Below are positions 2,055-34,602 of a DNA stretch of 44,183 nt, one piece after another. How positions within the stretch are numbered: the stretch's first letter is position 1; each line of letters starts with the position of its first letter. The notes under the pieces were generated by a model. It was not told the DNA's origin. It was given only the letters and a program-made list of their open reading frames with translations, and made no database searches. A program made the translations under genes and the position numbers. The stretch comes from Candidatus Yonathbacteria bacterium (GTDB lineage: Bacteria; Patescibacteriota; Minisyncoccia; Phycocordibacterales; UBA1550), in NCBI GenBank assembly GCA_016201355.1, contig JACQCY010000011.1, positions 1 through 44,183 on the forward strand. Reading direction: 5' to 3'.

Positions 2055-2759
2055 ATGGATACCAAGCAACCAATATATAAAGACCTTATCGCCGGGATGT
2101 TCGCCGCGGGGGCGCATTTCGGTTATTCGCGTTCCCGTCGTCATCCTTCAATAAAGAATTTTATCTTCGGTTCAAAAAAAGGTGTTGAGATTCTTGATCT
2201 TGAAAAGACAAGCGCTGAGCTCGAGCGCGCGAAAGGTTTTGTAAGATCACTCGCCAAAGGCGGAAAGCAAATTCTCTTTGTGGGGACAAAGAATGAAGCC
2301 AAGAAAATAGTTGAAGATGGAGCGCTCTCTATTGATATGCCTTTTGTCGCCGAAAGGTGGGTTGGGGGCGCGCTTACCAATTTCCCCGAAATAAAGAGAC
2401 GGGTTGCGCTTCTCGAAGATCTTCGTTCCAAACACGAAAAAGGAGAACTCTCTGTTTATACAAAAAAAGAGCGTCTCCTTATTAGCAAGGATGTTGAACG
2501 CCTTGAGAGAAATTTTGGTGGGATAGTATCAATGAAAGAAATGCCCGCGGCTCTCTTTGTCGTTGACCCAAAAAAAGAATCAATCGCCGTTGACGAAGCG
2601 CGTTTCTTTAATATTCCTGTCATTGCGCTTGCCAATTCAGACTGCAACATAAAAGAAATTGATTTTCCCATCCCTTGCAATGACAGCTCTGTTTCAAGCA
2701 TATCTTTCTTTATTGAGCAAATCGTGCAGGCATTCAAAGACGGCAGGAACAGTCAATAA
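2055..2759 (+). CDS. rpsB: 30S ribosomal protein S2
   Basis: 234 aa. S2 hallmarks are AGAHFGYSRSRRHPSIKNFIFG and VVDPKKESIAVDEARFFNIPVIALANSDCN. The canonical rpsB-tsf pairing is present. Confidence 0.95.
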   Translation: MDTKQPIYKDLIAGMFAAGAHFGYSRSRRHPSIKNFIFGSKKGVEILDLEKTSAELERAKGFVRSLAKGGKQILFVGTKNEAKKIVEDGALSIDMPFVAERWVGGALTNFPEIKRRVALLEDLRSKHEKGELSVYTKKERLLISKDVERLERNFGGIVSMKEMPAALFVVDPKKESIAVDEARFFNIPVIALANSDCNIKEIDFPIPCNDSSVSSISFFIEQIVQAFKDGRNSQ

Positions 2760-2760
2760 T

Positions 2761-2850
2761 AAAATAGCAAAATAGTAGAATAGTAGAATAATAAAATATC
2801 AAAATAGTAAAATAGTAAACTATTCATTGTTCCACTATTAACTATTCATT
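2761..2850. repeat. Family-B-like word hairpin after rpsB
   Basis: The left half carries repeated AATAGT words (AATAGCAAAATAGTAGAATAGTAG...AAAATAGTAAAATAGTAA). The right half carries the complementary ACTATT words three times. Confidence 0.5.
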
Positions 2851-2857
2851 ACCCACA

Positions 2858-3448
2858 ATGATTTCTATCGAACAAATAAAAGAATTACGCGATATGACGG
2901 GAATATCCGTGATGCAATGCAAGAAAGCTCTTGAGGAGGCGAGTGGAGATAAGGAAAAGGCGCTTTTCCTTCTTCGCAAGAAGAGCGGGGATATTGCGGC
3001 GAAAAAAAATGACCGTGTTCTCGGCGCGGGCGTCATTGCTTCATATATTCACCATGGAAATACTCTTGGAGCACTTGTTGAACTTTCTTGCGAGACTGAT
3101 TTTGTTGCGCGAAACGAAGAATTTGTAGCGCTTGCGCGCGATATTGCTATGCATATTTCGGCAATGAACCCTGAATATATTAGCGAAGACCAAATTACCG
3201 AAGAGTCTCGCGCAAAGGTAAAGGGAATGTTTCAGAAAGAAGTTTCTGAGTCGGGCAAACCCGCAGATATTCAAGCAAAGATGATGGAAGGGAAACTTGC
3301 CACCTATTTTGCCGAGAAAACACTCCTCCTTCAGCCATTTGTGAAAAATCCCGATATGACCATCAAGCAATTGATCTATGGGGGCGTGCAGAAGTTTGGT
3401 GAAAAGATTATGGTTACTCGTTTTGTGCGTTTCTCGGTCGGAAAGTAG
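2858..3448 (+). CDS. tsf: Elongation factor Ts (short form)
   Basis: 196 aa with a UBA-like N-terminus ISIEQIKELRDMTGISVMQCKKALEEASGDKEKA and core LVELSCETDFVARNEEF. Confidence 0.93.
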   Translation: MISIEQIKELRDMTGISVMQCKKALEEASGDKEKALFLLRKKSGDIAAKKNDRVLGAGVIASYIHHGNTLGALVELSCETDFVARNEEFVALARDIAMHISAMNPEYISEDQITEESRAKVKGMFQKEVSESGKPADIQAKMMEGKLATYFAEKTLLLQPFVKNPDMTIKQLIYGGVQKFGEKIMVTRFVRFSVGK

Positions 3449-3471
3449 TCGCGAGTCAGGTTTTAGGTAAA

Positions 3472-3515
3472 AGGTGTCAGGTGTTAGAATATACATATCC
3501 TAACACCTGACACCT
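3472..3515. repeat. Perfect 16-bp stem hairpin downstream of tsf
   Basis: AGGTGTCAGGTGTTAG (3472-3487) pairs perfectly with CTAACACCTGACACCT (3500-3515) across a 12-nt loop. CTAACACCT is repeated again at 3521-3529. Confidence 0.65.
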
Positions 3516-3537
3516 GCCAGCTAACACCTTTTCTCCT

Positions 3538-3960
3538 ATGATCGTCATTATCACCCTTTTCTATAGTTCTCTCTTTGTCATTATAATAATGACGGGCTGG
3601 AAACTTGTGTCGCTTCGCGAGCGCAAGCTCTCTCTTATTGAAGGAGTTGAGAAGGAAATTCATAGTAAATTGTATACAATGATGAATGAGTGGTGGTATG
3701 TGCTTCGTACGAAATATCTTGTAAAAGCGCGCGCTCTTGCCATCTCTTTGTTTTATCGGATTGCTCACGATATACTGCATTTTGTGGGAATTTGGGGAGG
3801 AAAGCTTAAAGAGAGACACCGTAAATGGTTTGATATGGTAAAAGGGAAAGGGGTCATTCATAAAAAGGGTTCCGTCTCCCTCCATTTGCGGGATATTTCA
3901 GAATACAAGAGATTGCGAACAATAAACAACGAACAACAGACGGAGGAGAATAATCCTTAA
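3538..3960 (+). CDS. Hypothetical membrane-anchored protein
   Basis: 140-aa ORF with an N-terminal TM stretch IVIITLFYSSLFVIIIMTGW and a basic C-terminal part. No family recognised. Confidence 0.45.
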   Translation: MIVIITLFYSSLFVIIIMTGWKLVSLRERKLSLIEGVEKEIHSKLYTMMNEWWYVLRTKYLVKARALAISLFYRIAHDILHFVGIWGGKLKERHRKWFDMVKGKGVIHKKGSVSLHLRDISEYKRLRTINNEQQTEENNP

Positions 3961-3999
3961 TTTATTGATAGTCGTATGTAGTTGGTTGTAAATTCAAGT

Positions 4000-4075
4000 G
4001 CCACCTTAGCTCAGTTGGTAGAGCAATGCTTTTGTAAAGCAAAGGTCCCCAGTTCGAATCTGGGAGGTGGCTCCA
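4000..4075 (+). tRNA. tRNA-Thr (anticodon UGU), CCA encoded
   Basis: Cloverleaf read by hand. Acceptor GCCACCT/AGGTGGC, D-arm GCTC-AGTTGGTA-GAGC, anticodon arm ATGCT-TTTGTAA-AGCAA with anticodon TGT at 4033-4035. Variable loop AGGTC, T-arm CCCAG-TTCGAAT-CTGGG, discriminator T, CCA at 4073-4075. Confidence 0.92.
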
Positions 4076-5219: not shown

Positions 5220-7154
5220 ATGAATATTTCAATTTCCTACAACTGGCTTAAGTCACATTTTGACAAGGACATTCCAAATTCTGGCGAGTTTGTTGGTATT
5301 CTCACAAAAAACCTCGCCGAGGTTGAGGGGGTGGAAATTCGCGGAGATGATACTATTTTTGATATAAAAATTATGCCTGATCGTGGGCACGATCTATTGT
5401 GTCACAAGGGAATCGCGCGCGAAGTTTCGGTGTTGAGCGGAGTACCACTTAAAAACGAAAAACGAAAAACGAAAAACAAAAAATCATCCCCAGCAACAAT
5501 GCTCCGCGTCTTTGTTGAAGATGTAAAACTTTGTCCGCGCTATATGGGGCTTGTGGTGGAGAATATCAAAGTAGGAGATTCGCCAGCGTGGCTTCGTACG
5601 CGCCTTGAGTCAGTGGGACAACGATCCATCAACAATATCGTGGACATTACGAACTTTGTAATGCTTGAAATAGGGCAGCCGATGCACGCATTTGACTTAG
5701 GCAAATTAGCAACCAACGACAAACAACAGACGACGATAGAAGTGCGAAAGGCGCGCGGAGGAGAGAAGATAACGACGCTTGATGAAAAAGAAATAATACT
5801 TACTCCCGATACGCTCGTCATTGCTGACAGTAATCAAGCGCTTGCCATTGCGGGGATAAAAGGAGGCAAGGACGCGGTGGTAGATGGCGCAACAACGAGT
5901 ATTATTTTTGAGGCGGCAAATTTTAATGCGGTACATACGCGCAAGACTGCGCAAAGAGTCGGTATCCGCACCGATTCATCAAAACGATTTGAACACGGAC
6001 TTTCGCCATCCTTGGTCTCTGATGCAATGTCTCTTGCGGTAGAGATGTTGGTTGAATTATGTCCCGATGCAATAGTTGGCGAAGCCATAGATGTGTATCC
6101 TGAGCCACAACAAGAGAAGACAATAACTATGAGCGTAAAAGATATAAACGGCATTCTTGGAACGACACTTTCGGGGGATGAAGTAGAGAAAATTCTCAAC
6201 CGTTTGGATTTTAAAAATGAACGCAGGGGAGAGATATTCGTCGTAACGCCACCTCTCCTTCGCCTTGACCTTGTTATCAAGGAGGATATTGCCGAGGAGA
6301 TTGGTCGTGTGTATGGATTTGATAAGGTCATTGATGCTCCGCTTCCTCCTCTTTCTTTTACTCCGAAACCACTCAAGGAATATTATTATGCAAATATGAT
6401 CCGCGACACACTCGTCGCGCAGGGTTTTTCGGAAGTATACACTTCGTCATTTCAAAAAGAGGGTGTGTTTGCAGTAGAAAATCCTCTTGCTCTCGATAAG
6501 GCATTTTTGCGAAAGGATCTGGCAACGAATATTAAGCAATCTCTCGAGCTCAATACGTATAATGCGCCACTCCTTGGACTTGATGAAATTAAGATTTTTG
6601 AAATTGGTAAAGCGTTTCCCGGAGTGATGCAGGAGAAACTTTTGTGCGTGATAGGTATTGAGATGGTGAAGACAAATAAAAAGAAAGCGGAAATTACGCG
6701 CGAGGCTCTTGAACAAGCGAGAACTCTTTTAGGTGAAATATTAGAAAATCCAATCGATGGGGAATTTTCTGAAAATATTTTTGAATTTGACCTTGGCGCT
6801 TTCTTGGATAAATTGCCTGAACCAAAAGCAGGGGAGCCTTTTACTTCTACGAGCACTCGCTACACGAAATTCTCTCCCTATCCATTTATGCTTCGCGACA
6901 TTGCCCTCTGGGTTCCCGAAGGAATCTCTGTAGATGATGTGCTCTCTGTTGTTTCAAGCGAAGCGGGCGAGCTTCTCCGCACGAAAAAGCTTTTTGATGT
7001 CTTCACGAAAGAATTTCCCGAAGGTAAAAAAACATCCTACGCTTTCAACCTCGTCTTTCAGTCATACGAAAAGACTCTTTCTGATGAAGAAATAAATAGC
7101 ATTATGGAACGCATTACCACCACGCTCTCAGCAAAAAGTTGGCAGGTGCGGTAG
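5220..7154 (+). CDS. pheT: Phenylalanine--tRNA ligase beta subunit (lacks the N-terminal OB-fold tRNA-binding domain)
   Basis: 644 aa, starting 3 nt after pheS. The B1 start MNISISYNWLKSHF runs directly into the B3-type segment DIKIMPDRGHDLLCHKGIAREV. The C-terminal anticodon-binding-like end is SPYPFMLRDIALWV...KTSYAFNLVFQ. Confidence 0.9.
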   Translation: MNISISYNWLKSHFDKDIPNSGEFVGILTKNLAEVEGVEIRGDDTIFDIKIMPDRGHDLLCHKGIAREVSVLSGVPLKNEKRKTKNKKSSPATMLRVFVEDVKLCPRYMGLVVENIKVGDSPAWLRTRLESVGQRSINNIVDITNFVMLEIGQPMHAFDLGKLATNDKQQTTIEVRKARGGEKITTLDEKEIILTPDTLVIADSNQALAIAGIKGGKDAVVDGATTSIIFEAANFNAVHTRKTAQRVGIRTDSSKRFEHGLSPSLVSDAMSLAVEMLVELCPDAIVGEAIDVYPEPQQEKTITMSVKDINGILGTTLSGDEVEKILNRLDFKNERRGEIFVVTPPLLRLDLVIKEDIAEEIGRVYGFDKVIDAPLPPLSFTPKPLKEYYYANMIRDTLVAQGFSEVYTSSFQKEGVFAVENPLALDKAFLRKDLATNIKQSLELNTYNAPLLGLDEIKIFEIGKAFPGVMQEKLLCVIGIEMVKTNKKKAEITREALEQARTLLGEILENPIDGEFSENIFEFDLGAFLDKLPEPKAGEPFTSTSTRYTKFSPYPFMLRDIALWVPEGISVDDVLSVVSSEAGELLRTKKLFDVFTKEFPEGKKTSYAFNLVFQSYEKTLSDEEINSIMERITTTLSAKSWQVR

Positions 7155-7178
7155 TTTATTTGACGAGAGTAGGTAATC

Positions 7179-7616
7179 GTGCTAGATTTTTTTTGGAAAG
7201 TCTCAATGGCCATCCTTATCCTCGGCGGTGGCGTACCAAAGAACTACAGTTTGCAGCCGGAACCGACACTCTCGCAGATCTTCATGCTTGAGGGAATCAA
7301 GGGCTACGATTACGATTTTCAGATTGTATCGTCTCCGGTGACGGACGGCAGTCTGTCGGGTTGCTTCGCTTCTGAGGCGGTAACATGGGGCAAGGTGAAC
7401 CCGGGGAAGATACATCAGACCGCAAGTTTGCAGGCGGACTACTCAACCGTAATGCCGTTTATCGTACGGGCATTGGTTGAAAAATTTCCCAAAATTCCTC
7501 CGCTCCGTCTTTTTAATCGTCGCGAGGAACTTATGGGGGTGTTGGACGCCGCCGTGAATAAGCGGGCGCGGTACCTCAAAGAGAAAACTTTTTCATTTCC
7601 CTTGGTGGTTTTGTAA
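7179..7616 (+). pseudogene. C-terminal fragment of a deoxyhypusine synthase-like protein (N-terminal ~60% missing)
   Basis: MAILILGGGVPKNYS aligns with DHS GGGVVKHH, including the catalytic Lys. DGSLSGCFASEAVTWGKVN aligns with DGSDSGARPDEAVSWGKIR, and ADYSTVMPFIVRAL with ADASLVFPLLVAETF. The ORF is only 145 aa, starts at GTG 24 nt after pheT, and has no upstream NAD-binding part. Confidence 0.6.
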
Positions 7617-7630
7617 AATCTACAAATACT

Positions 7631-7667
7631 CCGCGACCTCCTTTATCGGAGGCGCGGGGTATTTTTT
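7631..7667 (+). terminator. Intrinsic terminator
   Basis: CCGCGACCTCC-TTTATC-GGAGGCGCGG hairpin followed by GGTATTTTTT. Confidence 0.65.
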
Positions 7668-7739
7668 ATATATGATTATCTCGTATTTCTGATCGTAAAG
7701 TTAAAAAAGATGGCTGGCAGGTACGGTAATTTTTGAACA

Positions 7740-8834
7740 ATGTTTTTCGTGTGCTATGATGCCCTTATGTCATCTCTCGGAACGATTACCCTTATAAAAA
7801 TATTCATACCTGCCACGCTTTCTTTCGTCCTTGGAATTTTGATGACGCCTCTTTTGATGCGTTATTTTATAAAATATCGGATGTGGAAGAAAAATTCCCG
7901 TAAGAGCAGTGAAAAATCCGTGGCGTTTTTGCAGATCCACAATGAGGAGGGGGAGCTCTCCACTCCGCGCGTAGGGGGGATGGTGGTATGGCTTGCGGTA
8001 GTATTGGTGATTTTTTTATTCGCTATTCTGTCATTAGTTTTGCCAACACCACTCACCTCAAAGCTCAATTTTCTCAGTCGCAACCAAACATTCATACCGC
8101 TCTTTGCATTTATTTCGGCTGCCCTCTTGGGACTCTCTGACGATCTCCTCCAAATATTCGGCAAGGGTGGATATGCAAATGACCACACAATGTATCGCAA
8201 AATAAAAGCGGGGACGATTATTTTAATAGGGTTTCTTATCGGGCTTTGGTTTGTTTTTAAACTTGGCATTACTGCTGTTTTTGTCCCTTTTTATGGCTCT
8301 CTTGAGTTAGGGCTTCTTTTCATTCCGTTTTTCATTACGGTAATGCTTGCGACTTTTTCCACAAGCGTGATTGACGGCATTGATGGACTTTCTGCGGGGG
8401 TTCTTGCTCCAGTATTCATTGGCTATGCGGTGATCGCTTTTTTAAATAATCAGGTTGACCTCGCCGCTTTCTCTTCTGCTGTTGTGGGAGGGACGCTCGC
8501 ATTCCTTTGGTTTAATATTCCGCCCGCGCGATTTTATATGGGGGAAACGGGAATGCTTGCGCTCACGGTCGTTCTCTCTGTCCTCGCTTTTATGACCGAT
8601 ACGGTATTTATTCTCCCTGTCATCGCGCTCCCGCTCGTCGCTACATCTTTTTCGGTTATTGTTCAAATGCTCTCAAAGAGATTTCGGGGAGGTAAAAAAA
8701 TATTTCTCGTCGCGCCACTCCACCACCACTTTGAGGCTATTGGATGGCCTAAATACAAAGTAACGATGCGGTATTGGGTCATCGCGATGGTGTCGGTGGT
8801 GGTTGGGGTAACCCTTGCTCTGTTGAGCAAATAA
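7740..8834 (+). CDS. mraY: Phospho-N-acetylmuramoyl-pentapeptide transferase
   Basis: 364 aa, polytopic. Motifs DDLLQIFG, STSVIDGIDGLSAG, NIPPARFYMGETG and APLHHHFEAIGW. Confidence 0.92.
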   Translation: MFFVCYDALMSSLGTITLIKIFIPATLSFVLGILMTPLLMRYFIKYRMWKKNSRKSSEKSVAFLQIHNEEGELSTPRVGGMVVWLAVVLVIFLFAILSLVLPTPLTSKLNFLSRNQTFIPLFAFISAALLGLSDDLLQIFGKGGYANDHTMYRKIKAGTIILIGFLIGLWFVFKLGITAVFVPFYGSLELGLLFIPFFITVMLATFSTSVIDGIDGLSAGVLAPVFIGYAVIAFLNNQVDLAAFSSAVVGGTLAFLWFNIPPARFYMGETGMLALTVVLSVLAFMTDTVFILPVIALPLVATSFSVIVQMLSKRFRGGKKIFLVAPLHHHFEAIGWPKYKVTMRYWVIAMVSVVVGVTLALLSK

Positions 8835-8944
8835 AATTTTAAATTTCAAATTCTAAATTTTAAATCAATTTTAAATATCTCAATTTTTAAACATTTAGTA
8901 ATTTAGATTTCATTTAAAATTTAAAATTTGTAATTTAAAATTAA
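8835..8944. repeat. Family-A AT-rich quasi-palindromic intergenic element (copy 1)
   Basis: Starts right after the mraY stop. It contains the reverse complement of the 22-mer core at 8919-8940. Block 8889-8942 matches 43144-43197 at 53 of 54 positions. Confidence 0.8.
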
Positions 8945-8950
8945 TTGAAT

Positions 8951-9619
8951 ATGTGTGGAATAACCGGCTTTATTAATAAGGGGAACAAAGACGAAATCAT
9001 CCGCAGAATGACGGATGCTATTATTTATCGTGGTCCCGACGATGATGGGTATTTCGTGGGTGGAGAGATAGCTCTCGGAATGCGCCGTCTCTCTATCATT
9101 GATCTTGAGGGCGGGAAACAACCGATTACTTCGCAGGATGAAAATTTCGTTATTGTTTTTAATGGTGAGATTTACAATTACCGCGCGCTCCGCGAGGATT
9201 TGATTCTGCGCGGGTACAAGTTCAAGACTCATACCGATACCGAGGTCGTCCTCCATCTTTTTGAAGCGGAGGGAAGCGCGTGTTTGAGTAAACTTCGCGG
9301 TATGTTTGCATTTGCCATTTTTGACAAACAATCACAGAAACTTTTTATCGCTCGTGATTTTTTTGGCATTAAACCGCTTTATTATCTTTTGAGTAGTGAC
9401 GGCAATATGCGCGCTTTTGGGTCTGAAATAAAGAGCATTTTGGCTATTCAGGGTGTGCCTCGTATGGTCAATGACGAAGCGGTACTCAACTATCTTTCCT
9501 TTCAGTATAATCCGCTTAAAGAAACTTTCTTTAAAAATATTTTCAAACTTGCGCCGGGGAGTTTTCTTGATATTGATATTGCGAGCGGAAAATTTGTTGA
9601 GAAAAAATATGATGAATAA
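8951..9619 (+). CDS. asnB: Asparagine synthase (glutamine-hydrolysing), N-terminal glutaminase-domain piece of a split gene
   Basis: MCGITGFI (Cys2 nucleophile), RGPDDDG, LGMRRLSIIDL, IVFNGEIYNY and HTDTEVVLH. It ends ...GKFVEKKYDE* with TAA at 9617-9619. Confidence 0.8.
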   Translation: MCGITGFINKGNKDEIIRRMTDAIIYRGPDDDGYFVGGEIALGMRRLSIIDLEGGKQPITSQDENFVIVFNGEIYNYRALREDLILRGYKFKTHTDTEVVLHLFEAEGSACLSKLRGMFAFAIFDKQSQKLFIARDFFGIKPLYYLLSSDGNMRAFGSEIKSILAIQGVPRMVNDEAVLNYLSFQYNPLKETFFKNIFKLAPGSFLDIDIASGKFVEKKYDE

Positions 9620-9675: not shown

Positions 9676-10629
9676 GTGACCGCGCGACACATTGGTACCG
9701 ACCATAAAGCCATCAACATATCGCGTGATGAATATTTTAGAGAAATCCCTAACATTGTGTGGCACTTTGACGAGCCGGTCGCCGACCCTTCTGCCGCGGC
9801 GCTTTATTTTGTCGCTCGCGAAGCGCGGAAAAAAGTAAAGGTGGTAATGTCGGGTGAAGGGGCGGATGAACTCTTTGGCGGATATAATATTTACCTTGAA
9901 TCCTATGCGCGTCGCAGACTTGCTCTCGTACCAAAGATTATTCGAGAAAATATTTTGCGCCCGCTCGCAGAGTCAAAGTATTCATTTCGTGGGAAAAATT
10001 TTCTCGTTCGTTTTTTTAGTTATTTGGAAGATTGGTATATTGGCAATGCGAATATTTTTACTCCGCGCGAAGTTGAGAATATGTGGAAAGGGGATACATA
10101 TGAGCGGATGAGTCTTGCTCCTCTTTATAAAAAAGTATCCGACCGCGATGACTCCGAAAAGATGCAGTACATTGACATCAATACTTGGCTTCCGGGGGAT
10201 ATTTTGGCAAAAGCAGACAAGATGACGATGGCTCATTCTCTTGAGCTTCGCGTGCCGTTTTTGGATCGCAATGTTTCTGATTTTGCGCGCCGTCTTCCTC
10301 CGAAATTAAAATGGAAAAATTACACCACTAAATATCTTTTGCGCTCTGTTGCGGATACTTTGCTTACTCCCGCAATCGCGCGGAGAAAAAAACTCGGCTT
10401 TCCTACCCCCGTAGGAAAGTGGTTTGACGCATCGCAAAAAGAGCTCTACCGTTCTATTGTTGAGAATACCTATATTCGGGAGCATTTCAATATGTCTGTC
10501 GTTCAAAAACTCATTGATGATCATATCTCTGGTCGCAAAAACAATGCACGCAAAATCTACCTCTTTCTCCTTTTTGCTCTCTGGTATGATATTTTCATCG
10601 GAGAGACAATGAAGGTGGGAAAAGAATAG
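9676..10629 (+). CDS. asnB: Asparagine synthase, C-terminal synthetase-domain piece (frame open from 9616); PP-loop absent
   Basis: ..STFTIGFDEVSEAREAEVTARHIGTDHKAI, MSGEGADELFGGY and DKMTMAHSLELRVPFLD. There is no SGGxDS ATP-pyrophosphatase loop in either piece. The only start codon is GTG 9676. Confidence 0.8.
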   Translation: MTARHIGTDHKAINISRDEYFREIPNIVWHFDEPVADPSAAALYFVAREARKKVKVVMSGEGADELFGGYNIYLESYARRRLALVPKIIRENILRPLAESKYSFRGKNFLVRFFSYLEDWYIGNANIFTPREVENMWKGDTYERMSLAPLYKKVSDRDDSEKMQYIDINTWLPGDILAKADKMTMAHSLELRVPFLDRNVSDFARRLPPKLKWKNYTTKYLLRSVADTLLTPAIARRKKLGFPTPVGKWFDASQKELYRSIVENTYIREHFNMSVVQKLIDDHISGRKNNARKIYLFLLFALWYDIFIGETMKVGKE

Positions 10630-14396: not shown

Positions 14397-14960
14397 ATGT
14401 TGTACACGGGAAAAGGGGACAAGGGGACAACGCAAACTTTTGGATGTTGTGACCAGAGAATTTCAAAGAGTTCGGCAGTCACTGAAGCGCTTGGTTCCCT
14501 TGATGAAGTCAATTCATTTCTTGGTGTCGTAAAAATGCATCCTCGTTCGCGAGAGATTACGGTGTCTTCTGCTCGTGGGGTGCAGATGGTTGCAAAAACA
14601 ATAGAGAAGATACAACAACATCTTTTTATTGCGCAGGCGGAGGTGGCGGGAGCGGATAAACATATTGAGGAAAAGAATGTGCGCGAAATAGAGGACATCA
14701 TCAATACGATTGAAGCAGGGCTTCCTCCCATTACCACATTTTTTGTTTCGGGAGGTACGGAACTTTCGGCGCTTATTGATTTTGCGCGCACGCTCGCGCG
14801 GCGCGCCGAGAGACGAGTTGTGGGGGTAGCGGATGAGGGAAGTATCATTATCCACAAGGATACCCTTGTATATTTAAACCGTCTCTCGTCGCTCCTCTAC
14901 GCGCTCGCTCGACAAGTAAACCTCAGTTCTGGTATAACAGAGGAGTCGCCGAATTATTAG
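14397..14960 (+). CDS. ATP:cob(I)alamin adenosyltransferase, PduO/MMAB type
   Basis: 187 aa with the N-terminal YTGKGDKGTT motif, SKSSAVTEALGSLDEVNSFLG, and C-terminal LNRLSSLLYALAR. Confidence 0.85.
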   Translation: MLYTGKGDKGTTQTFGCCDQRISKSSAVTEALGSLDEVNSFLGVVKMHPRSREITVSSARGVQMVAKTIEKIQQHLFIAQAEVAGADKHIEEKNVREIEDIINTIEAGLPPITTFFVSGGTELSALIDFARTLARRAERRVVGVADEGSIIIHKDTLVYLNRLSSLLYALARQVNLSSGITEESPNY

Positions 14961-26192: not shown

Positions 26193-26346
26193 GGAGAGTT
26201 TTGCTTTAAGGAGCTCATACTGGACAAATTTATTGAAAAGTATAAGCTAGAAGAGGGTTAGAAAATAGCGCCTTTTGTCTTTATGAAAATGAGGATATTG
26301 GGCTTAAAATACTTTGACAACTTACTGTAAATAAAGGAGGAATGTC

Positions 26347-26964
26347 ATGAGGAAGAAGACAAAGAACATCGTTAAAAGACCTTCGTGGGATGAGCTTTTT
26401 ATGATGACAGCGATACTTGTCGCCACAAGGCACTCTTGTTTGAAACGGGGTGTCGGCAGTTGTATTGTCAAGGACAATAAGATCGTCGCGACGGGATACA
26501 ATGGCGCGGCAAAGGGGATAAAAAGCTGTCTGGAGTTGGGCTACTGCTACTATGAGCACCTCGCAGAGCAAGAAGTAAGGACAAATGGTGGCGACATAAA
26601 GATGATTAAAGAGTCGTTCAAAATGTACTGTCAGGCGGTTCATGCAGAAGCCAATGCCAAGAGTCAATGCTTGCCGATGGTAGCAGAGGGGTCAACGATC
26701 TACATCACCAATGTCCCCTGCCCGAAATGCACGCAAGACATCATCATTACGGGAGGGGTAAAAGCGATTGTCGTCTGGAAAGAATATCTCCAGAATTACA
26801 CGCTCACGACGGATGAAAAAAAGGTAACCGATAAGAAACTCCAGCAGGCAGGGATTGCCCTGCGGTTTCTTGATCTAACCTCACACAGGATAATGGAGAT
26901 CGCCGGGTATATGGCGAACCGAGTCGGCGAAAGGCTGGACTATCAATTCAAAGGAGGAGGGTAG
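26347..26964 (+). CDS. Deoxycytidylate (dCMP) deaminase
   Basis: PSWDELFMMTAILVATRHSC, GYNG, zinc motifs HAEANA and PCPKC, and an extra Cys cluster before HAE as in ComEB/dCMP deaminases. A strong SD AAGGAGG (26334-26340) lies 6 nt before the ATG. Confidence 0.88.
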   Translation: MRKKTKNIVKRPSWDELFMMTAILVATRHSCLKRGVGSCIVKDNKIVATGYNGAAKGIKSCLELGYCYYEHLAEQEVRTNGGDIKMIKESFKMYCQAVHAEANAKSQCLPMVAEGSTIYITNVPCPKCTQDIIITGGVKAIVVWKEYLQNYTLTTDEKKVTDKKLQQAGIALRFLDLTSHRIMEIAGYMANRVGERLDYQFKGGG

Positions 26965-26965
26965 A

Positions 26966-28348
26966 ATGAAATGCAAGATAGTCCATCCTGTGTTTGCCAA
27001 GAAAGAAGTCATCATAGGTAATCCGCAATCTCCCATAGCGGTGGGTACCTTATGGTCGCAAGTGGATCACTTTTGCAAGAATCATCTCGACGGCTTGATG
27101 GACAAGATTGCCATCGTTGGTAATATTCGTTCCGTCTATGGCATTGGCATTGTAATTAGGAATTGCCTTGCCAATCCCAACATACAGAAACTCGTTGTAA
27201 GTGGGGTGGCAACATCAGATGGTTCCCTTTTAGCCCTAAAGAGATTATCGACCGATCCTTCTTTGTGCGAGACTTTTTTTCTAAGTCATCGGCACATAGA
27301 AAGATTCCTTCAGCAGGTTGAAATTATTTATCTTAACCCTGAAGAGGTCGCAGATTTTGTGGGTAAAGAATTTCTCTCACCCAAGAAGGTTTTTAAACCA
27401 TGGGTGACTTCGTTACTTGTTCCGAAGACAAAGGTCTTTCCTGCGGCAGAGTCAGGGCACCTCATAAGGGCTACAACCATCAAGGAGGGATACGAAGCAC
27501 TCTTAAAAGAGATTCGGCTCTTCGGTCATCTTCTAAAAGAAGACTCTGAAGGGAACATCCGCCAAGAGCTTTGGAAGCTGAATATGGTGATAACGAATCA
27601 AGATCCTCTGGCTTTTGATTCTGTTCCCCATTCAGAATACAATGCCTCGCATATAAAAAAATATTGCGAGGACTTCTGGATTGGCTCCCCCCCTGATGGC
27701 GTTGAATATCGTTACGGCCACATCATTAGATTTGGTTTTGGTGATCAGGTGGAGGCCGTTATCAAAGCTTTTAAGGAAAAGGTGGAGACTTTCCGGACCG
27801 TGATCTCTCTTTGGGATCCACGAGTCGAGGGGGGGTCTATCACAGCAAAAGACCCACCATGCATTACCTTGATTCATCCCAGAATCATAGGGGAGAACCT
27901 GCGCCTTACGGCGTATATTCGAACGAACGATATGTTCGGCGGTTGGCCACTCAACGCTATGGCACTCCGCTATTTTCAGTATCAGCTCTTAGAGAGACTG
28001 AAGATAGAGTTGAAGCGCCCGGAATTAAAATTGGGAGATCTCGAAGTAACTTCCGCTTCAGCCCATATTTATTCCCGGGACTGGAAGAAAATAGAGGCTC
28101 TTCTGAAGAAAGTAGGGCCTCAAAAATTCTCCCCAGACCCAAAGGGAAATTTCCAGATTAAGGTAGAGGGTGGAGAGATTGTCGTTTGGCACTTCAGTCC
28201 GGACGGTGAAAAATTGCTCCAGGTTTTCCGCGGGAAGAATGCGGAAGAATTGAGCAGAAAACTTAAACCGTTCATCTCCGATATCGGAAACGCCCTGTAT
28301 GTCGGGCGAGAGTTGAAAAAAGCGGAACAATCCCTCGGACCATCATAG
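26966..28348 (+). CDS. Thymidylate synthase-like protein with an N-terminal MtrA-N-like module and a C-terminal DUF4346-like module
   Basis: ThyA-fold signatures in order: YRYGH, DQVEAVI, RTVISLWDP, nucleophile Cys in DPPCITL (27860-27862), IRTNDMFGGWPLN (Asn at 27953-27955) and SAHIY. The N-terminus is IIGNPQSPIAVGTLWS..IAIVGNIRSVYGIGIVIRNCLANPNIQKLVVSG. The C-terminus is DPKGNFQIKV..IVVWHF..ALYVGRELKKAE. SD AAGGAGGAGG lies at 26951-26960, and the ATG is 1 nt after the deaminase stop. Confidence 0.8.
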   Translation: MKCKIVHPVFAKKEVIIGNPQSPIAVGTLWSQVDHFCKNHLDGLMDKIAIVGNIRSVYGIGIVIRNCLANPNIQKLVVSGVATSDGSLLALKRLSTDPSLCETFFLSHRHIERFLQQVEIIYLNPEEVADFVGKEFLSPKKVFKPWVTSLLVPKTKVFPAAESGHLIRATTIKEGYEALLKEIRLFGHLLKEDSEGNIRQELWKLNMVITNQDPLAFDSVPHSEYNASHIKKYCEDFWIGSPPDGVEYRYGHIIRFGFGDQVEAVIKAFKEKVETFRTVISLWDPRVEGGSITAKDPPCITLIHPRIIGENLRLTAYIRTNDMFGGWPLNAMALRYFQYQLLERLKIELKRPELKLGDLEVTSASAHIYSRDWKKIEALLKKVGPQKFSPDPKGNFQIKVEGGEIVVWHFSPDGEKLLQVFRGKNAEELSRKLKPFISDIGNALYVGRELKKAEQSLGPS

Positions 28349-28366
28349 GTTCGAGGGATTTTTTAT
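28329..28366 (+). terminator. Intrinsic terminator of the deaminase/TS-like cassette
   Basis: AATCCCTCG (28329-28337) pairs with CGAGGGATT (28352-28360) and is followed by TTTTTA. The stop codon lies in the loop. Confidence 0.7.
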
Positions 28367-28384
28367 TAGCGACATAGAGCGAGA

Positions 28385-28491: not shown

Positions 28492-28634
28492 TTCACTCGT
28501 TTGAATATAAGGGTGAATACCCCGCCCCTCTGGGGCGATAAATGGGTGAGCGAAGCGAACACATTTTGTCCTGGGATTGCCTCGGGGTACATACCGCTTT
28601 TATTATTTATGGTAATATAAATGTATATAATTGT

Positions 28635-29273
28635 ATGAAAAAAGTGCCACTTATCATTTTTGACGGACTTGACGGGTCAGGGAAGAGCACTCAGGTTACG
28701 CTCTTGAAAGAGCGGATAAATAGGAAACATAAAGTCCTGTTTACGCGTGAGCCGGGAGGCGCGCCACTTTCGGAAAAAATCAGGGATATTTTCTCTACTC
28801 CTGAGGGCGCTCAGTCAAGCGCGCAGACGCAACTTTTTCTCGTCTCCGCTTCTCGTTCAAATTGGATTGAAGAGGTTACGGTCCCCAATCTGAAAGAAGG
28901 AACACCGGTAATCTCTGAACGAGGGGATTCGTCGACTTTTGCGTATCAAATATATATGAAGAAGAGGCTTGATTTGGAAAGATTATTCTGGGAGATCAGA
29001 GATGTCCTCTTTGGAGAATGGAAGCCGTCCCATTATTTTATTTTTGATGTGTCGGCGGTTGAAGCAAAACGACGCGTGAACACCGATACCAAGCGCACGC
29101 GATCGATCTTTGATATGGACCCCATTGATTCCTATGAACGCGCGCGTGATGGATTTCATCTCTTTGTAAAGAAACTCCCCGGGGAGGTTACTTTGATTGA
29201 TGGAGATAGAGACCCAAAGATTATCCACGAGGAAGTGTATGCGAAGATTAAAGAGCTTTGCGAGTGGAAATAA
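28635..29273 (+). CDS. tmk: Thymidylate (dTMP) kinase
   Basis: P-loop FDGLDGSGKSTQ, REPGG and GDSSTFAYQ. The conserved start is ATG 28635; the ORF-track start 28542 adds 31 unconserved residues. Confidence 0.88.
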   Translation: MKKVPLIIFDGLDGSGKSTQVTLLKERINRKHKVLFTREPGGAPLSEKIRDIFSTPEGAQSSAQTQLFLVSASRSNWIEEVTVPNLKEGTPVISERGDSSTFAYQIYMKKRLDLERLFWEIRDVLFGEWKPSHYFIFDVSAVEAKRRVNTDTKRTRSIFDMDPIDSYERARDGFHLFVKKLPGEVTLIDGDRDPKIIHEEVYAKIKELCEWK

Positions 29274-31107: not shown

Positions 31108-34100
31108 ATGGAGAATGAGGGGAAAAAACTTTCAAGTATTGCGCAAAGGGAAGAGGAAATCCTCTCTTTTTGGCGTGAGAAAAAAATCTTTGAGAAGACT
31201 CTTGAGCAAACGGAACATGGAGAAGCTTTTTCTTTTTATGATGGACCACCGTTTGCGACCGGAGTCCCTCACTATGGGCATATTGTTACGAGCGCTATAA
31301 AAGACGCGATTCCTCGCTATCAAACAATGTGCGGACGCCATGTTCGTCGTGTGTGGGGGTGGGACTGTCACGGGCTTCCTATCGAGAATCTCATAGAGGG
31401 AGAGCTGGGACTTCCACACAAAAAAGATATTGAGGAGTACGGTATTGGGAAATTTAATGAAGCGGCGCGCGCTTCGGTACTGCGCTACGATTCGTTATGG
31501 AAAGAAATGATTCCGCGTATTGGACGATGGATCGATATGGAGCATTCCTACAAGACGATGGACGCTTCTTATACCGAGTCGGTGTGGTGGGCTTTCAAAA
31601 CTCTGTATGAAAAAGGACTCATCTATCAAGGGTTCAAAGCAATGCAAATTTGCCCGCGCTGTGAGACGACACTCTCAAATAATGAAGTTGCGGACGGGTA
31701 CAAAGATATTACGGATATTTCGGTGACGGTGAAGTTTGAACTCGAAGAATCGAACACCAAAAACCTAACACCTAAAACCTATGTTTTGGCATGGACGACA
31801 ACACCGTGGACACTTCCGGGAAATGTGGCATTAGCGGTGAATTCGGATGAGGAATACATAAAGGTTTCAATAGGAACTGAAAAATATATTTTAGCGAAAG
31901 AACGCGCAGAGAAAATACTTGCAGGGAAAGAATATGAAATTATCTCACGGGTAAAAGGAAAGGATCTTGTTGGTAAGAAATACAAACCAATCTTTGATTA
32001 TTATTCAAAAGACGAATCTCTTGCCAACCATAAAAATGGTTGGAAAATATATGGCGCGGATTTTGTGACAATGGACAGCGGTACGGGGGTGGTACATATT
32101 GCGCCTGCTTTTGGCGAGGACGATATGGCTCTCGGCAAGAAAGAAAATTTGCCATTCATTCAACATATTTCAATGGATGGCATAATGAAAAAAGAGGTGC
32201 GTGATTTCGCCGGTGTTTCTGCAAAACCAAAAACAAAAGAGAAAGACGGACACCAATCGACAGATATTTTAATCATTAAACATCTTGCGGGGGTAGGCGC
32301 GCTCTTTTCAAAAGAAAAAATAATCCACGCATACCCTCATTGTTGGCGATGCGATACCCCACTCCTCAATTACGCCACGGAGTCGTGGTTTGTGAAAGTT
32401 ACCGATCTTAAGGGAAGACTTGTTGAGGAAAACGCAAAGACAAAGTGGGTCCCTGAAAATTTGCGCGACGGTCGTTTTGGTCAGTGGCTCCTAGGCGCGC
32501 GCGATTGGGCAATTTCTCGCTCACGGTTCTGGGGCGCGCCACTGCCGGTATGGAATTGTGATTCTTGTGAAAAGAGAAGCGTCTTTGGTTCGCGAGCAGA
32601 ATTAGCTCAGGCTACCAGAAAATCAGGAAATAAATATTTTGTAATGCGTCATGGAGAAGCTGAAAGCAATAGGGAGCGCATTGTCAGTTCAACTATTGCC
32701 ACGGGCAACAGTCACGGACTTACCGAGAAGGGAAGAAAAGAGGTAAAAGAGGCTAGTCAACGACTCGATCGAGAATCGATACAAATCATCATCTCCTCGC
32801 CTTTTCTTCGTGCAAGACAGACGGCAGAAAGTGTTGCAGATACGCTCGGGCTTAATTCAAAAGAAATAATCATCGACGAACGGCTCAAGGAGATAGACAC
32901 GGGTGTTTTTGACGGTAAATCCATTGATGATTATCGTGGATATTTTGCCTCAATGCGCGAGAAATTTATCAAGCGTCCTGAGAAGGGAGAAAATCTTCTC
33001 GATGTAAAGCGTCGTGTTATGGAGCTTATGGACGAGCTCGAAGAAAAATATCAAGGTAAAAATATTTTACTCGTAACTCATGAATATCCTCTCTGGATGA
33101 TTACCTCAGGAGTAGAAGGAGCGGATGTTGATCGAGCACTCGGAATAAAAGAGGGGAATGATGATTTTATAAAAACGGGAGAAATAAAAGAGATACCTTT
33201 TACCTTATTCCCCCACAATGCTGAATATGAATTTGATATGCATCGTCCCTATATTGATAATGTTCCTGTTGTGTGTTCGTGCGGGGGGAAAATGCTCCGT
33301 GTACCCTATGTCTTTGACTGTTGGTTTGAATCCGGTTCTATGCCGTATGCGCAATTTCATTATCCATTTGAGAACAAGGAATTGTTTGAAAAAAATTTCC
33401 CTGCGAATTTTATTGCCGAGGGAATCGATCAGACGCGCGGATGGTTCTATAATATGCTCAATCTCTCGGTGGGACTTTTTGGAAAAGCTCCCTTTAAAAA
33501 TGTACTCGTGAATGGTCTTGTCCTTGCCGAGGATGGACAGAAGATGTCAAAGCGTCTTAAAAATTATCCAGATCCGCTTGATATTATCAACAGATATGGC
33601 GCAGATGCGATGCGGTATTATCTATTGTCGTCACCGCTCGTTCATGCGGAGGATTTTGCTTTTTCTGAGAAAGGAGTGGATGAGGTGGTAAAGAAAGTGC
33701 TTATGCGTCTTCTCAATGTCCTCTCGTTTTACGAGCTTCATAAGTCAAAGAAGGGTGAATCAAAAAATACCAAAGAAAATATTTTAGATCAATGGATATT
33801 ATCTCGCCTCGCAGAACTTGGCAATGAGATGACGCTCTCCTTGGATAAATATGAACTCGAACGTGCGATAAAACCAATTGGGCTTTTCGTTGACGACCTC
33901 TCCACCTGGTACCTTCGCCGTTCACGGGATCGATTTAAGTCAGACGATGAAGAGGAGCGCACGCAAGCGATAGAAACAACACGAGAAGTATTTTTTGAGT
34001 TTTCAAAATTGATAGCTCCCATAATGCCATTTATGGCGGATCATATTTATTTAAAAATGGAAGGAGAAAAAGAGAGCGTGCATTTGGAAGAATGGCCTGT

Positions 34101-34602
34101 TTTTAGTGAGCCAAACCAAGATGCTCTCGCGTGGATGAAACAAATAAGACAAATTGTTTCCCTAGCTCTTGAGGCTCGCGCAAAAGCTGAGATAAAAGTG
34201 CGCCAACCGCTACACGAGTTAAAAGTTAAAAGTGGAAAGTTGAAAGTGGGATACGCGGAACTTATTAAAGACGAGGTAAATGTAAAAGAAGTCGTATTTG
34301 ACGATGCAATGTCCGAAGAAGTGGAGCTTGATACTATTATTACCCCGGAGCTCAAACAAGAGGGGCAATTTCGCGAGCTTGCGCGCGCGGTGCAAGAGCT
34401 TCGCAAGACAAAAGGACTTACGCCATCGGATATGGCGACACTTGAGATTGGGGCGGACGAAGAGGGACGCGCTCTCGTTGATGCATTTAGCGACGAACTC
34501 AAAAAAACATCACTTCTAAATGAAATTGTGTTTAAAGAGGTGCAAGGCGAGTCAGTGGATGCAAATGGCATTTTGTTTACGATAGCGTTAAGTAGAAAAT
34601 AG
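31108..34602 (+). CDS. ileS: Isoleucine--tRNA ligase (type 2) carrying an inserted histidine-phosphatase domain
   Basis: HIGH = PHYGHIV, editing domain TTPWTLPGN, WAISRSRFWGAPLPVW, FDCWFESGSMPYAQ, EGIDQTRGWFY and KMSKRL. At 1164 aa it is longer than usual because of the insert at 32620-33207. Confidence 0.93.
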   Translation: MENEGKKLSSIAQREEEILSFWREKKIFEKTLEQTEHGEAFSFYDGPPFATGVPHYGHIVTSAIKDAIPRYQTMCGRHVRRVWGWDCHGLPIENLIEGELGLPHKKDIEEYGIGKFNEAARASVLRYDSLWKEMIPRIGRWIDMEHSYKTMDASYTESVWWAFKTLYEKGLIYQGFKAMQICPRCETTLSNNEVADGYKDITDISVTVKFELEESNTKNLTPKTYVLAWTTTPWTLPGNVALAVNSDEEYIKVSIGTEKYILAKERAEKILAGKEYEIISRVKGKDLVGKKYKPIFDYYSKDESLANHKNGWKIYGADFVTMDSGTGVVHIAPAFGEDDMALGKKENLPFIQHISMDGIMKKEVRDFAGVSAKPKTKEKDGHQSTDILIIKHLAGVGALFSKEKIIHAYPHCWRCDTPLLNYATESWFVKVTDLKGRLVEENAKTKWVPENLRDGRFGQWLLGARDWAISRSRFWGAPLPVWNCDSCEKRSVFGSRAELAQATRKSGNKYFVMRHGEAESNRERIVSSTIATGNSHGLTEKGRKEVKEASQRLDRESIQIIISSPFLRARQTAESVADTLGLNSKEIIIDERLKEIDTGVFDGKSIDDYRGYFASMREKFIKRPEKGENLLDVKRRVMELMDELEEKYQGKNILLVTHEYPLWMITSGVEGADVDRALGIKEGNDDFIKTGEIKEIPFTLFPHNAEYEFDMHRPYIDNVPVVCSCGGKMLRVPYVFDCWFESGSMPYAQFHYPFENKELFEKNFPANFIAEGIDQTRGWFYNMLNLSVGLFGKAPFKNVLVNGLVLAEDGQKMSKRLKNYPDPLDIINRYGADAMRYYLLSSPLVHAEDFAFSEKGVDEVVKKVLMRLLNVLSFYELHKSKKGESKNTKENILDQWILSRLAELGNEMTLSLDKYELERAIKPIGLFVDDLSTWYLRRSRDRFKSDDEEERTQAIETTREVFFEFSKLIAPIMPFMADHIYLKMEGEKESVHLEEWPVFSEPNQDALAWMKQIRQIVSLALEARAKAEIKVRQPLHELKVKSGKLKVGYAELIKDEVNVKEVVFDDAMSEEVELDTIITPELKQEGQFRELARAVQELRKTKGLTPSDMATLEIGADEEGRALVDAFSDELKKTSLLNEIVFKEVQGESVDANGILFTIALSRK
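32620..33207 (+). other. In-frame inserted domain inside ileS: histidine phosphatase (phosphoglycerate-mutase-like) superfamily
   Basis: Signature elements in order: YFVMRHGEAESN, SSPFLRARQTAE, ERLKEIDTGVFDG and ILLVTHEYPLWMI. The insert is flanked by collinear IleRS sequence (..SRAELAQATRKS | ..FDMHRPYIDNVP). Confidence 0.75.

Follow-up and report, generated by a model that had tools for sequence, protein, structure and literature searches.

The stretch of DNA analysed here, called the window, is the whole 44,183-nucleotide contig JACQCY010000011.1 of a Candidatus Yonathbacteria bacterium. Our subject is a gene at 26966..28348 on its forward strand (+), an open reading frame (ORF) of 460 amino acids (aa) plus stop codon, whose Pfam and NCBIfam matches mark it as a three-domain thymidylate synthase gene: a ThyA core lies between an MtrA-fold domain and a DUF4346 domain. 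The protein is 100% identical to HY228_00720 of a Candidatus Yonathbacteria metagenome-assembled genome, where the NCBI annotation reads 'hypothetical protein'. Directly ahead of it lies a gene for a 205-aa dCMP deaminase (26347..26964, +; PF00383, E 7e-18), which is expected to make the substrate dUMP. The stop codon of this deaminase gene is 1 nt ahead of the start of the three-domain gene, and the start codon of the latter follows 7-8 nt after an AGGAGG Shine-Dalgarno sequence. A weak promoter-like site ahead of the pair (26283..26310, +) comes from a consensus scan only, with 9/12 matches, and Rfam revealed no riboswitch, for folate or otherwise, ahead of the operon, its single match in the window being a tRNA. 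At the other end, a strong terminator-like hairpin with a 13-bp stem, at 28329-28360, and a following T-run (terminator annotated at 28329..28370, +) overlaps the stop codon of the three-domain gene. Because of the 1-nt spacing and because this stop codon lies inside the hairpin, the transcription unit most likely consists of the dCMP deaminase gene and the three-domain gene. Downstream of the hairpin, and with a start of its own, is a gene for dTMP kinase, which consumes dTMP (28542..29273, +; PF02223, E 4e-29; TIGR00041 above cut-off; likely true start Met at 28635).

Domain architecture and catalytic core

An earlier note on this DNA, which was made by reading the sequence, had described three modules, namely an MtrA-like part, a ThyA core and a DUF4346-like tail. 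The Pfam search agrees with this description in that all three families score above their curated gathering cut-offs: PF04208 (MtrA) marginally, at aa 13-81 with 25.9 bits against 25 (E 9e-6), PF00303 (Thymidylat_synt) with 44.2 bits against 24.3, and PF14251 (PterinBD-DUF4346) at aa 391-457 with 46.6 bits against 29.6. The N-domain, an MtrA-fold, Rossmann-like domain recognised by Pfam, NCBIfam, PDB entry 5LAA and hhalign, spans aa 8-135 (26987..27370, +) and is followed by a linker at aa 136-164 (27371..27457, +). The catalytic core at aa 165-384 (27458..28117, +) has a short archaeal-type ThyA fold, as seen with TIGR03283, hhalign, Foldseek and conservation, and the C-domain, DUF4346, occupies aa 385-460 (28118..28345, +) on the basis of PF14251 and a model of the domain. 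AlphaFold gave a confident model of the whole protein (mean predicted local distance difference test, pLDDT, 87.7; predicted TM-score, pTM, 0.69). Its sole disordered stretch is aa 155-161 of the linker, where the pLDDT falls below 50; the linker ends in a conserved F-P motif and its P159 is nearly invariant. In a Foldseek search of the PDB, the whole model found its best matches among thymidylate synthases and compact ThyA-fold enzymes (dCMP hydroxylase 9IQU, T4 dCMP hydroxymethylase and MilA), in line with the ThyA-family assignment in the earlier note.

The best NCBIfam match of the core is TIGR03283, the 'methanogen-type' thymidylate synthase, which covers positions 2-201 of 201 at aa 166-376 and scores 97.4 bits, under the equivalog cut-off of 174.55. 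A profile search with the core retrieved stand-alone proteins of 207-240 aa from Altiarchaeota, Thorarchaeota, Pacearchaeota and Methanobrevibacter. They have in common with the core the motifs RSNDMFGAWPxN, YxYG, SAHIY and TKE/RQE, together with ExxPC/xxPC, in which a polar or acidic residue lies three positions before the catalytic Cys, and they stop ~15 residues past SAHIY. Since these proteins share its motifs and end so soon after SAHIY, the extra domains of the three-domain protein are additions to a core able to stand alone. These profiles place the core in the short archaeal 'methanogen-type' ThyA lineage, with which it aligns from end to end and shares the same deletions relative to bacterial ThyA. 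However, the TIGR03283 archaeal ThyAs are single-domain proteins with neither the MtrA-fold domain nor DUF4346, and they keep Arg21 (in DERG) and Arg126-Arg127, whereas the three-domain protein has Glu195 and Phe276.

The alignment with E. coli ThyA by hhalign places the catalytic residues of the core in register: C299 corresponds to Cys146, R319 to Arg166, T320 to Ser167, D322 to Asp169, N330 to Asn177, H367 to His207, Y369 to Tyr209, Y250 to Tyr94 and R277 to Arg127. The catalytic Cys and Asn named in the earlier note are properly aligned, and the motifs DPPC299, I318-R-T-N-D322, WPLN330 and S365-A-H-I-Y369 are found at the residues that it had given. On the forward strand, the codons are at 27566-27568 for Glu201, 27713-27715 for Tyr250, 27794-27796 for Arg277, 27860-27862 for the nucleophile Cys299, 27920-27922 for Arg319, 27929-27931 for Asp322, 27953-27955 for Asn330, 28064-28066 for His367 and 28070-28072 for Tyr369. 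To describe conservation, we aligned 85 cellular and 80 viral homologues (165 loci) to the family profile. E201, Y248, Y250, C299, R319, D322, N330, H367 and Y369 are invariant in 85/85 cellular homologues and also, with the exception of 1-3 sequences that have gaps or diverge, among the 80 viral homologues.

It has been reported, from an experimental survey of phage ThyA homologues, that Asn at position 177 selects dUMP and not dCMP, Asp being the residue that reads cytosine; that Asp at position 169 marks the folate-type enzyme, with Asn there in the flavin-dependent 5-hydroxy-dCMP synthases (RB69 gp48, AfhB); and that an acidic residue at the Leu143 position admits water and goes with hydroxymethylation in the phage enzymes (PMC13326640). 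The three-domain protein has N330 and not the Asp of the dCMP/CMP hydroxymethylases (T4 gp42, MilA), and D322 and not the Asn of the flavin-dependent 5-hydroxy-dCMP synthases. With Asn at the uracil-reading position, dUMP stands as the predicted substrate, as the earlier note had proposed.

Canonical ThyA (E. coli, L. casei, human; EC 2.1.1.45) shares the fold and the catalytic residues at ~20% identity, but several of its other elements are missing here. Only R277 (=Arg127) and R319 (=Arg166) of the four-arginine phosphate clamp are present, Arg21 and Arg126 being absent. Trp80 is replaced by Ile254 in the hhalign alignment, where Trp83 is without an aligned counterpart. The Glu58-bearing helix of canonical ThyA is not aligned with the core and appears to be absent from it. 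The C-terminal tail with its carboxylate lid, which closes over folate in canonical ThyA, is missing as well and DUF4346 helices are in its place, and the protein has gained an N-terminal domain of 135 aa. When the folate-binding residues of ThyA are checked, as the earlier note had advised, the outcome is divided: the Asp169 equivalent is kept, but Trp80, Trp83 and the lid are not.

The MtrA-fold domain and DUF4346

The whole-model fold search was dominated by the ThyA core and was uninformative on the N- and C-domains. The N-domain matches NCBIfam NF002126 over aa 11-122 (E 1e-11) and PDB 5LAA, the solved M. jannaschii MtrA (E 7e-5), and its family profile aligns with M. jannaschii MtrA over 118 columns at 99.3% hhalign probability (E 2e-20). 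Intermediate proteins connect it to unmistakable MtrA homologues. In common with MtrA, the corrinoid subunit of methyl-H4MPT:CoM methyltransferase (5LAA, 5L8X, 8Q3V), it has the motifs GxPxSxVAvxTL, GIxxxxxN and NPNIRxLVxxG, and by these measures of sequence we consider the N-domain a true MtrA homologue. Unlike MtrA, the three-domain protein has no membrane anchor and no cobalt-ligand pair, the meander segment around Ile111 is also deleted in its clade, and no mtr genes are among the window ORFs; its score against TIGR01111 is 20.7 bits, compared with a cut-off of 249.

In the MtrA structure, the cobalt and corrin ring are held by His84, which is the lower axial ligand and is hydrogen-bonded to Glu54, and by Asn55 and Asn82, while the pocket for the nucleotide tail is formed by contacts with Lys52-N, Thr53, Gly57-O, Val61 and Asn64 (PMC4915002). 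Aligned with MtrA, the N-domain lacks the His84 loop and has Val57 in place of Glu54, and Asn55 and Asn82 are gone. The earlier note had already remarked that the His ligand was missing, and the alignment supports it. On the other hand, the equivalents of the tail pocket are kept as Ser56 (Thr53), Gly59 (Gly57), Val63 (Val61) and Asn66 (Asn64). The most conserved N-domain residues across the cellular and viral homologues are Trp30, Tyr55, Gly59, Arg65 and Asn66, of which W30, Y55, G59 and N66 are near-invariant in the 165 loci. With the ligands lost and the pocket positions kept, the N-domain is an MtrA fold without the cobalt ligand and with a seemingly intact phosphate/nucleotide pocket. Cobalt-ligand loss therefore rules out corrinoid binding of the MtrA-type, His-on kind, and the domain may still take a His-off corrinoid or another phosphate-bearing ligand.

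Because the whole-model search was of no use for it, DUF4346 was also modelled alone, which gave a pLDDT of 92 and a fold of three strands followed by two helices. No significant fold match to this model was found in the PDB (best Foldseek E 0.11), nor was there a sequence-profile match. Asp391 and Gly394 at the start of the domain are invariant in 85/85 cellular homologues and are kept in all non-gapped viral ones except for one D391E, and the helix motif ALYxGRELxKAE is conserved. Both phmmer alignments to PDB ThyAs and hhalign pair the first DUF4346 hairpin with the one at the C-terminus of canonical ThyA, and the envelopes of PF00303 and PF14251 overlap in two relatives, from which we place DUF4346 where canonical ThyA has its hairpin and lid. 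NCBIfam aligns DUF4346 with the C-terminus of the DHPS-like family TIGR00284.

Relatives and their genomic neighbourhoods

A taxonomic survey, which the earlier note had called for, found the fusion to be widespread in Patescibacteria, DPANN archaea, cyanobacteria and uncultivated viruses. A scan of one genome per species gave at least 589 relatives of the core motif, and the best 80 of these are nearly all near full-length three-domain genes. The hosts of these 80 are many Patescibacteria; Woese-, Nano-, Aenigm-, Pace- and Micrarchaeota among the DPANN archaea, with the complete genome of Candidatus Nanopusillus acidilobi; and cultured cyanobacteria such as Nostoc, Calothrix, Cylindrospermum NIES-4074, Raphidiopsis brookii D9, Chlorogloea and others. 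The full-length protein is also encoded on more than 100 IMG/VR uncultivated viral contigs, some near 200 kb (loci L090-L169 are among them), and on the Logan contig SRR31017055_1743041 (L002). Deposited phage genomes gave no match to the three-domain protein (tblastn, E 1e-10), and BFVD had no entry with the full architecture. Databases frequently label members 'thymidylate synthase' already, and a published census counted 8/31 cyanobacteria as ThyA-type.

A profile search of 1.84 billion representative proteins identified 1,293 DUF4346 proteins, and we sorted the best 150 of them into architecture classes with our own domain profiles. Most of these 150 have the N-domain, core and C-domain (N+core+C) or are fragments thereof. 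Some have the N- and C-domains without the core, among them P0254, which has the same His-less type of N-domain, and P0284 and P0255, which are real MtrA homologues with the TEN and GH motifs kept. Such two-domain MtrA+DUF4346 proteins, and the DHPS-like+DUF4346 proteins (TIGR00284), have the same DUF4346 as the three-domain protein but no ThyA core. P0255 (466 aa) also has an apparent intein-splicing remnant in its N-terminal part, where the Pfam Intein_splicing match is below cut-off. In P0249, P0295, P0322 and P0332 (400-454 aa), the core between the two domains is degenerate and without the Cys and RSND motifs, and these proteins are probably pseudo-enzymes or partner subunits. P0200 (786 aa), P0201 (837 aa) and P0262 (797 aa) are fused pseudo-dimers of the order N+core+C+core+C. 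In P0201, the second core has Ser in place of the Cys and keeps the other catalytic residues, so that the first core alone has the Cys and there is therefore one N-domain per active site. In P0200 and P0262, Asn replaces Asp169 (RTHN / RAHN), a residue that marks flavin-dependent hydroxylases among phage homologues. Others of the 150 consist of DUF4346 alone. Such stand-alone DUF4346 proteins, ~130 aa long, are common in marine picocyanobacteria; on two marine picocyanobacterial contigs (L005, L007), the gene at 6001-6400 is only a few genes away from both PTPS (pterin synthesis) and RibD_C (DHFR-like reductase fold).

The neighbourhood of the three-domain gene in its relatives consistently concerns the supply of dUMP and the use of dTMP. 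A dCMP deaminase gene is directly upstream in other Parcubacteria (L003, L004) and is within 4 kb of the three-domain gene in 20/85 loci, and 13 of the 18 cyanobacterial loci have one or two dCTP-deaminase-like genes flanking it. The order in the Nanoarchaeote L049 is NUDIX, dUTPase, three-domain gene and canonical ThyA. In the Woesearchaeote L042, the cluster contains a fusion of a kinase-like (AAA) domain with dCMP deaminase, a canonical ThyA, a dihydrofolate reductase (DHFR)-serine hydroxymethyltransferase (SHMT) fusion, the three-domain gene, Tmk and a FolC-like ligase; the DHFR-SHMT fusion, encoded at 2185-4002 (+) of JAAOYC010000003.1 between the canonical ThyA and the three-domain gene, has 605 aa with DHFR at aa 4-169 and SHMT at aa 175-575. 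To judge from its predicted products, the L042 cluster is a compact thymidylate cycle and the clearest link of the three-domain gene to folate. A different setting is found in L009, a 6.27-Mb bacterial contig, where a 264-aa canonical ThyA, a 112-aa ThyA fragment and the three-domain homologue lie in a row at 6491-9239. Downstream of them are ORC/CDC6-like ATPases, a DNA cytosine methylase and an HD-domain protein, and the content of this locus suggests a mobile or defence-type island, not a housekeeping one.

In addition to these genes, we also noticed genes of corrinoid metabolism. An ATP:corrinoid adenosyltransferase gene of the CobA/CobO/BtuR type lies within 4 kb of the three-domain gene in 11/18 cyanobacterial loci (e.g. 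L087 6913-7464 (-)), an adenosyltransferase gene at 1867-2400 of L004 is ~5.6 kb from it, and in the window a PduO-type cobalamin adenosyltransferase is encoded at 14397..14960 (+), 12 kb away. B12-dependent ribonucleotide reductase needs adenosylcobalamin, and this need may place adenosyltransferases in deoxynucleotide clusters. The nearby adenosyltransferases could thus be linked to the MtrA fold or, equally, to B12-dependent ribonucleotide reductase.

The remaining genes of the window are housekeeping genes for ribosomal proteins, NusG, aminoacyl-tRNA synthetases and GyrB, and three of its ORFs or ORF pairs have features worth noting. The isoleucyl-tRNA synthetase (IleRS; 31108..34602, +; 1164 aa) has an insertion that bears an RHGE motif (...KYFVMRHGEAESNR...); in its 1187-aa orthologue in L004, a precomputed match to His_Phos_1 (histidine phosphatase) is located between two tRNA-synt_1 matches, and a phosphatase domain inside IleRS is unusual. 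Asparagine synthetase appears as two ORFs 56 nt apart, a glutamine-amidotransferase part at 8945..9619 (+) and a synthetase part at 9676..10629 (+), which may reflect gene splitting, a frameshift or a misassembly. Finally, a 145-aa ORF at 7179..7616 (+) is a truncated DS-like sequence whose match to the deoxyhypusine synthase profile is confined to the last ~80 positions.

Proposed reaction and role of the added domains

We propose, with a probability of roughly 55%, that the gene encodes a folate-dependent dUMP methylase in which the added domains stand in for elements missing from the short core, those that bind the cofactor and those that form the lid. The parts of this proposal differ in strength. 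That the three-domain protein is the thymidylate synthase of this bacterium and methylates dUMP to dTMP is very probable, because its catalytic set maps onto ThyA with Asn at 177 and Asp at 169 and because the gene occurs in dUMP/dTMP gene clusters. The catalytic residues are assigned by alignment; the donor, which we infer from hosts, gene clusters and Asp322, is probably methylene-tetrahydrofolate. Cyanobacteria, some of which have the full-length form, make folate and are not known to have methanopterin; the Woesearchaeote cluster combines DHFR-SHMT, a FolC-like ligase and Tmk; and Asp322 is the invariant Asp169 equivalent. The same three observations speak against the non-folate, methanopterin-like donor that the earlier note had considered.

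In the proposed pathway, the probably co-transcribed dCMP deaminase would supply dUMP, and dTMP kinase would act after the three-domain enzyme. Cys299 would add to C6 of dUMP, which would be held by Arg319, Thr320, Asn330, His367, Tyr369 and Arg277, and a methylene-tetrahydropterin, most likely 5,10-methylene-tetrahydrofolate docked on Asp322, would give both the carbon and the hydride. DUF4346, predicted to be attached exactly at the canonical C-terminal hairpin/lid site, and the MtrA-fold domain would together assist in binding or enclosing the cofactor or the substrate, or would make the dimer more stable. More tentatively, the N- and C-domains might replace what the core has lost, namely Arg21, Arg126, the Trp pocket and the C-terminal lid.

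Several observations weigh against this proposal. In the phosphate clamp, Glu195 takes the place of Arg21 and Phe276 that of Arg126, two or three of its four arginines have been lost or vary across the homologues, and most viral members have both the 126 and the 127 equivalents replaced (Ala, Ser) with the N-domain pocket residues invariant. The Leu143 position is Asp296 and is never hydrophobic in the homologues (N, S, D, K, H, E); it is Glu in the stand-alone archaeal ThyAs. In L009, L042 and L049, a canonical ThyA lies beside the three-domain gene, and we are therefore cautious about assuming simple redundancy. Co-variation analysis by mean-field direct coupling analysis with a reduced alphabet, on 288 full-length sequences (effective number ~204), yielded mostly short-range pairs and no credible coupling between domains. 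None of folA, glyA and thyX is among the ORFs of the window. Lastly, the literature searched contained neither a characterised member nor a paper on the three-domain architecture, which also bears out the earlier note's statement that it knew of no such enzyme. These searches gave nothing on DUF4346, PF14251, TIGR03283 or TIGR00284, and nothing relevant joining thymidylate synthase with MtrA or Nanopusillus with thymidylate. Even for the short archaeal thymidylate synthases, the cofactor is itself unsettled (PMC9012536).

The retained pocket of the N-domain invites a regulatory explanation, in which it senses a deoxynucleotide or similar effector and thereby adjusts thymidylate synthase activity, and DUF4346 is an oligomerisation or coupling element. 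The phosphate/nucleotide-tail pocket is indeed kept without the cobalt site, and DUF4346 is adaptor-like in that it occurs alone (~130 aa, in marine cyanobacteria) or with unrelated partners. Stand-alone cores exist, and the accessory domains are therefore not needed for the basic chemistry. Nevertheless, we consider this explanation unlikely, because the near-invariance of N-domain residues extends to phage copies, which usually shed regulation, because the loss of Arg21 and Arg126 from the core suggests catalytic compensation by the extra domains, and because the fused dimer P0201 has one N-domain per active core. In the broader terms of the earlier note, a built-in carrier or regulatory module is possible.

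A more far-reaching alternative is that the N-domain binds a catalytically active cofactor, either a corrinoid, base-off and His-off, or some other one with a nucleotide tail. For example, methyl-cob(III)amide would methylate the C5 enolate directly, or a redox cofactor would provide the reducing equivalents and tetrahydrofolate would be spared oxidation to dihydrofolate. The true homology of the N-domain to the B12-binding MtrA fold points in this direction, as do the high conservation of the tail-pocket residues Ser56, Gly59, Val63 and Asn66, the presence of DUF4346 on the genuine MtrA homologues P0284 and P0255, the adenosyltransferase genes near the three-domain gene in cyanobacteria, L004 and the window, and the eroded clamp arginines of the core. 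However, His84, Glu54, Asn55 and Asn82 are all lost, the conserved Gly and Asn could be purely structural, and B12-dependent ribonucleotide reductase could account for the adenosyltransferase neighbours. Moreover, the pterin-binding Asp and the full active-site signature are the same in the stand-alone archaeal ThyAs, which are without the N-domain. We accordingly give this alternative little credence, and no more to its structural form, in which the MtrA-fold domain, with DUF4346 as a cap, would present a corrinoid, as in corrinoid iron-sulfur proteins, or another redox or C1 cofactor to the ThyA site. If such presentation did take place, the protein would represent a third mechanistic class of thymidylate synthase, with ThyA-type Cys chemistry and a methyl or hydride from a bound cofactor, and DHFR would be dispensable in bacteria of the candidate phyla radiation, DPANN archaea and some cyanobacteria.

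The domain order recalls DHFR-thymidylate synthase (DHFR-TS) of protozoa and plants, in which a thymidylate synthase core also lies behind an N-terminal alpha/beta domain, and a bifunctional enzyme of this kind would use the N-domain, here of Rossmann type and possibly acting with DUF4346, to re-reduce the dihydropterin product. FolA is missing from many ThyX-using organisms, including cyanobacteria, and a FolA-independent ThyA would therefore fit such lineages. DHFR-TS is among the fold matches, but via its thymidylate synthase part only (TM ~0.35, root-mean-square deviation above 20 Å). The N-domain is not DHFR, with no PF00186 match at E up to 1 and no match to DHFR, FolM or any other reductase family in Pfam or NCBIfam, and on reading its sequence the classical dinucleotide-binding glycine motif is absent. 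A separate DHFR is encoded beside the three-domain gene in L042, and P0254 combines the N- and C-domains without a thymidylate synthase core. A reductase function is thus very improbable, and given the want of a reductase family match and the separate DHFR in L042 we dropped a DHFR-TS identity as the main interpretation.

Least probable is a dUMP hydroxymethylase or other pyrimidine C5-modifying enzyme in place of a methylase: the Leu143 position has an acidic residue, Asp296, of the kind linked to hydroxymethylating relatives, canonical ThyA is adjacent in three loci, many copies are on viral contigs and dCMP hydroxylase, dCMP hydroxymethylase and MilA are among the nearest compact folds, but we downgraded this identity because position 296 is variable, unlike a catalytic determinant, because stand-alone archaeal ThyAs, including Methanobrevibacter ones named thymidylate synthase, have Glu there, because the gene is the only thymidylate synthase-like one seen in the dCMP deaminase/Tmk cluster here and in related Parcubacteria, and because members are found in hundreds of cellular genomes, whose DNA is taken to contain ordinary thymine.

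Returning to the folate-dependent methylase with added domains, the family is recognisable and partly annotated and is for this reason not categorically new. What goes beyond the earlier note is the short archaeal-type core, the wide spread and the existing 'thymidylate synthase' names; the three-domain form appears to be an uncharacterised yet widespread ThyA subclass. To our knowledge, only two classes of thymidylate synthase, ThyA and ThyX, are known, and thymidylate synthesis is both essential and a classic drug target. Direct tests are feasible, since there are orthologues in the culturable Nostoc, Calothrix, Cylindrospermum and Raphidiopsis and in Candidatus Nanopusillus acidilobi, which has a complete genome. 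Characterisation would provide a first function for DUF4346 and for the branch of the MtrA fold without a cobalt ligand, and many ultra-small symbiotic bacteria and archaea may use the three-domain form as their thymidylate synthase.

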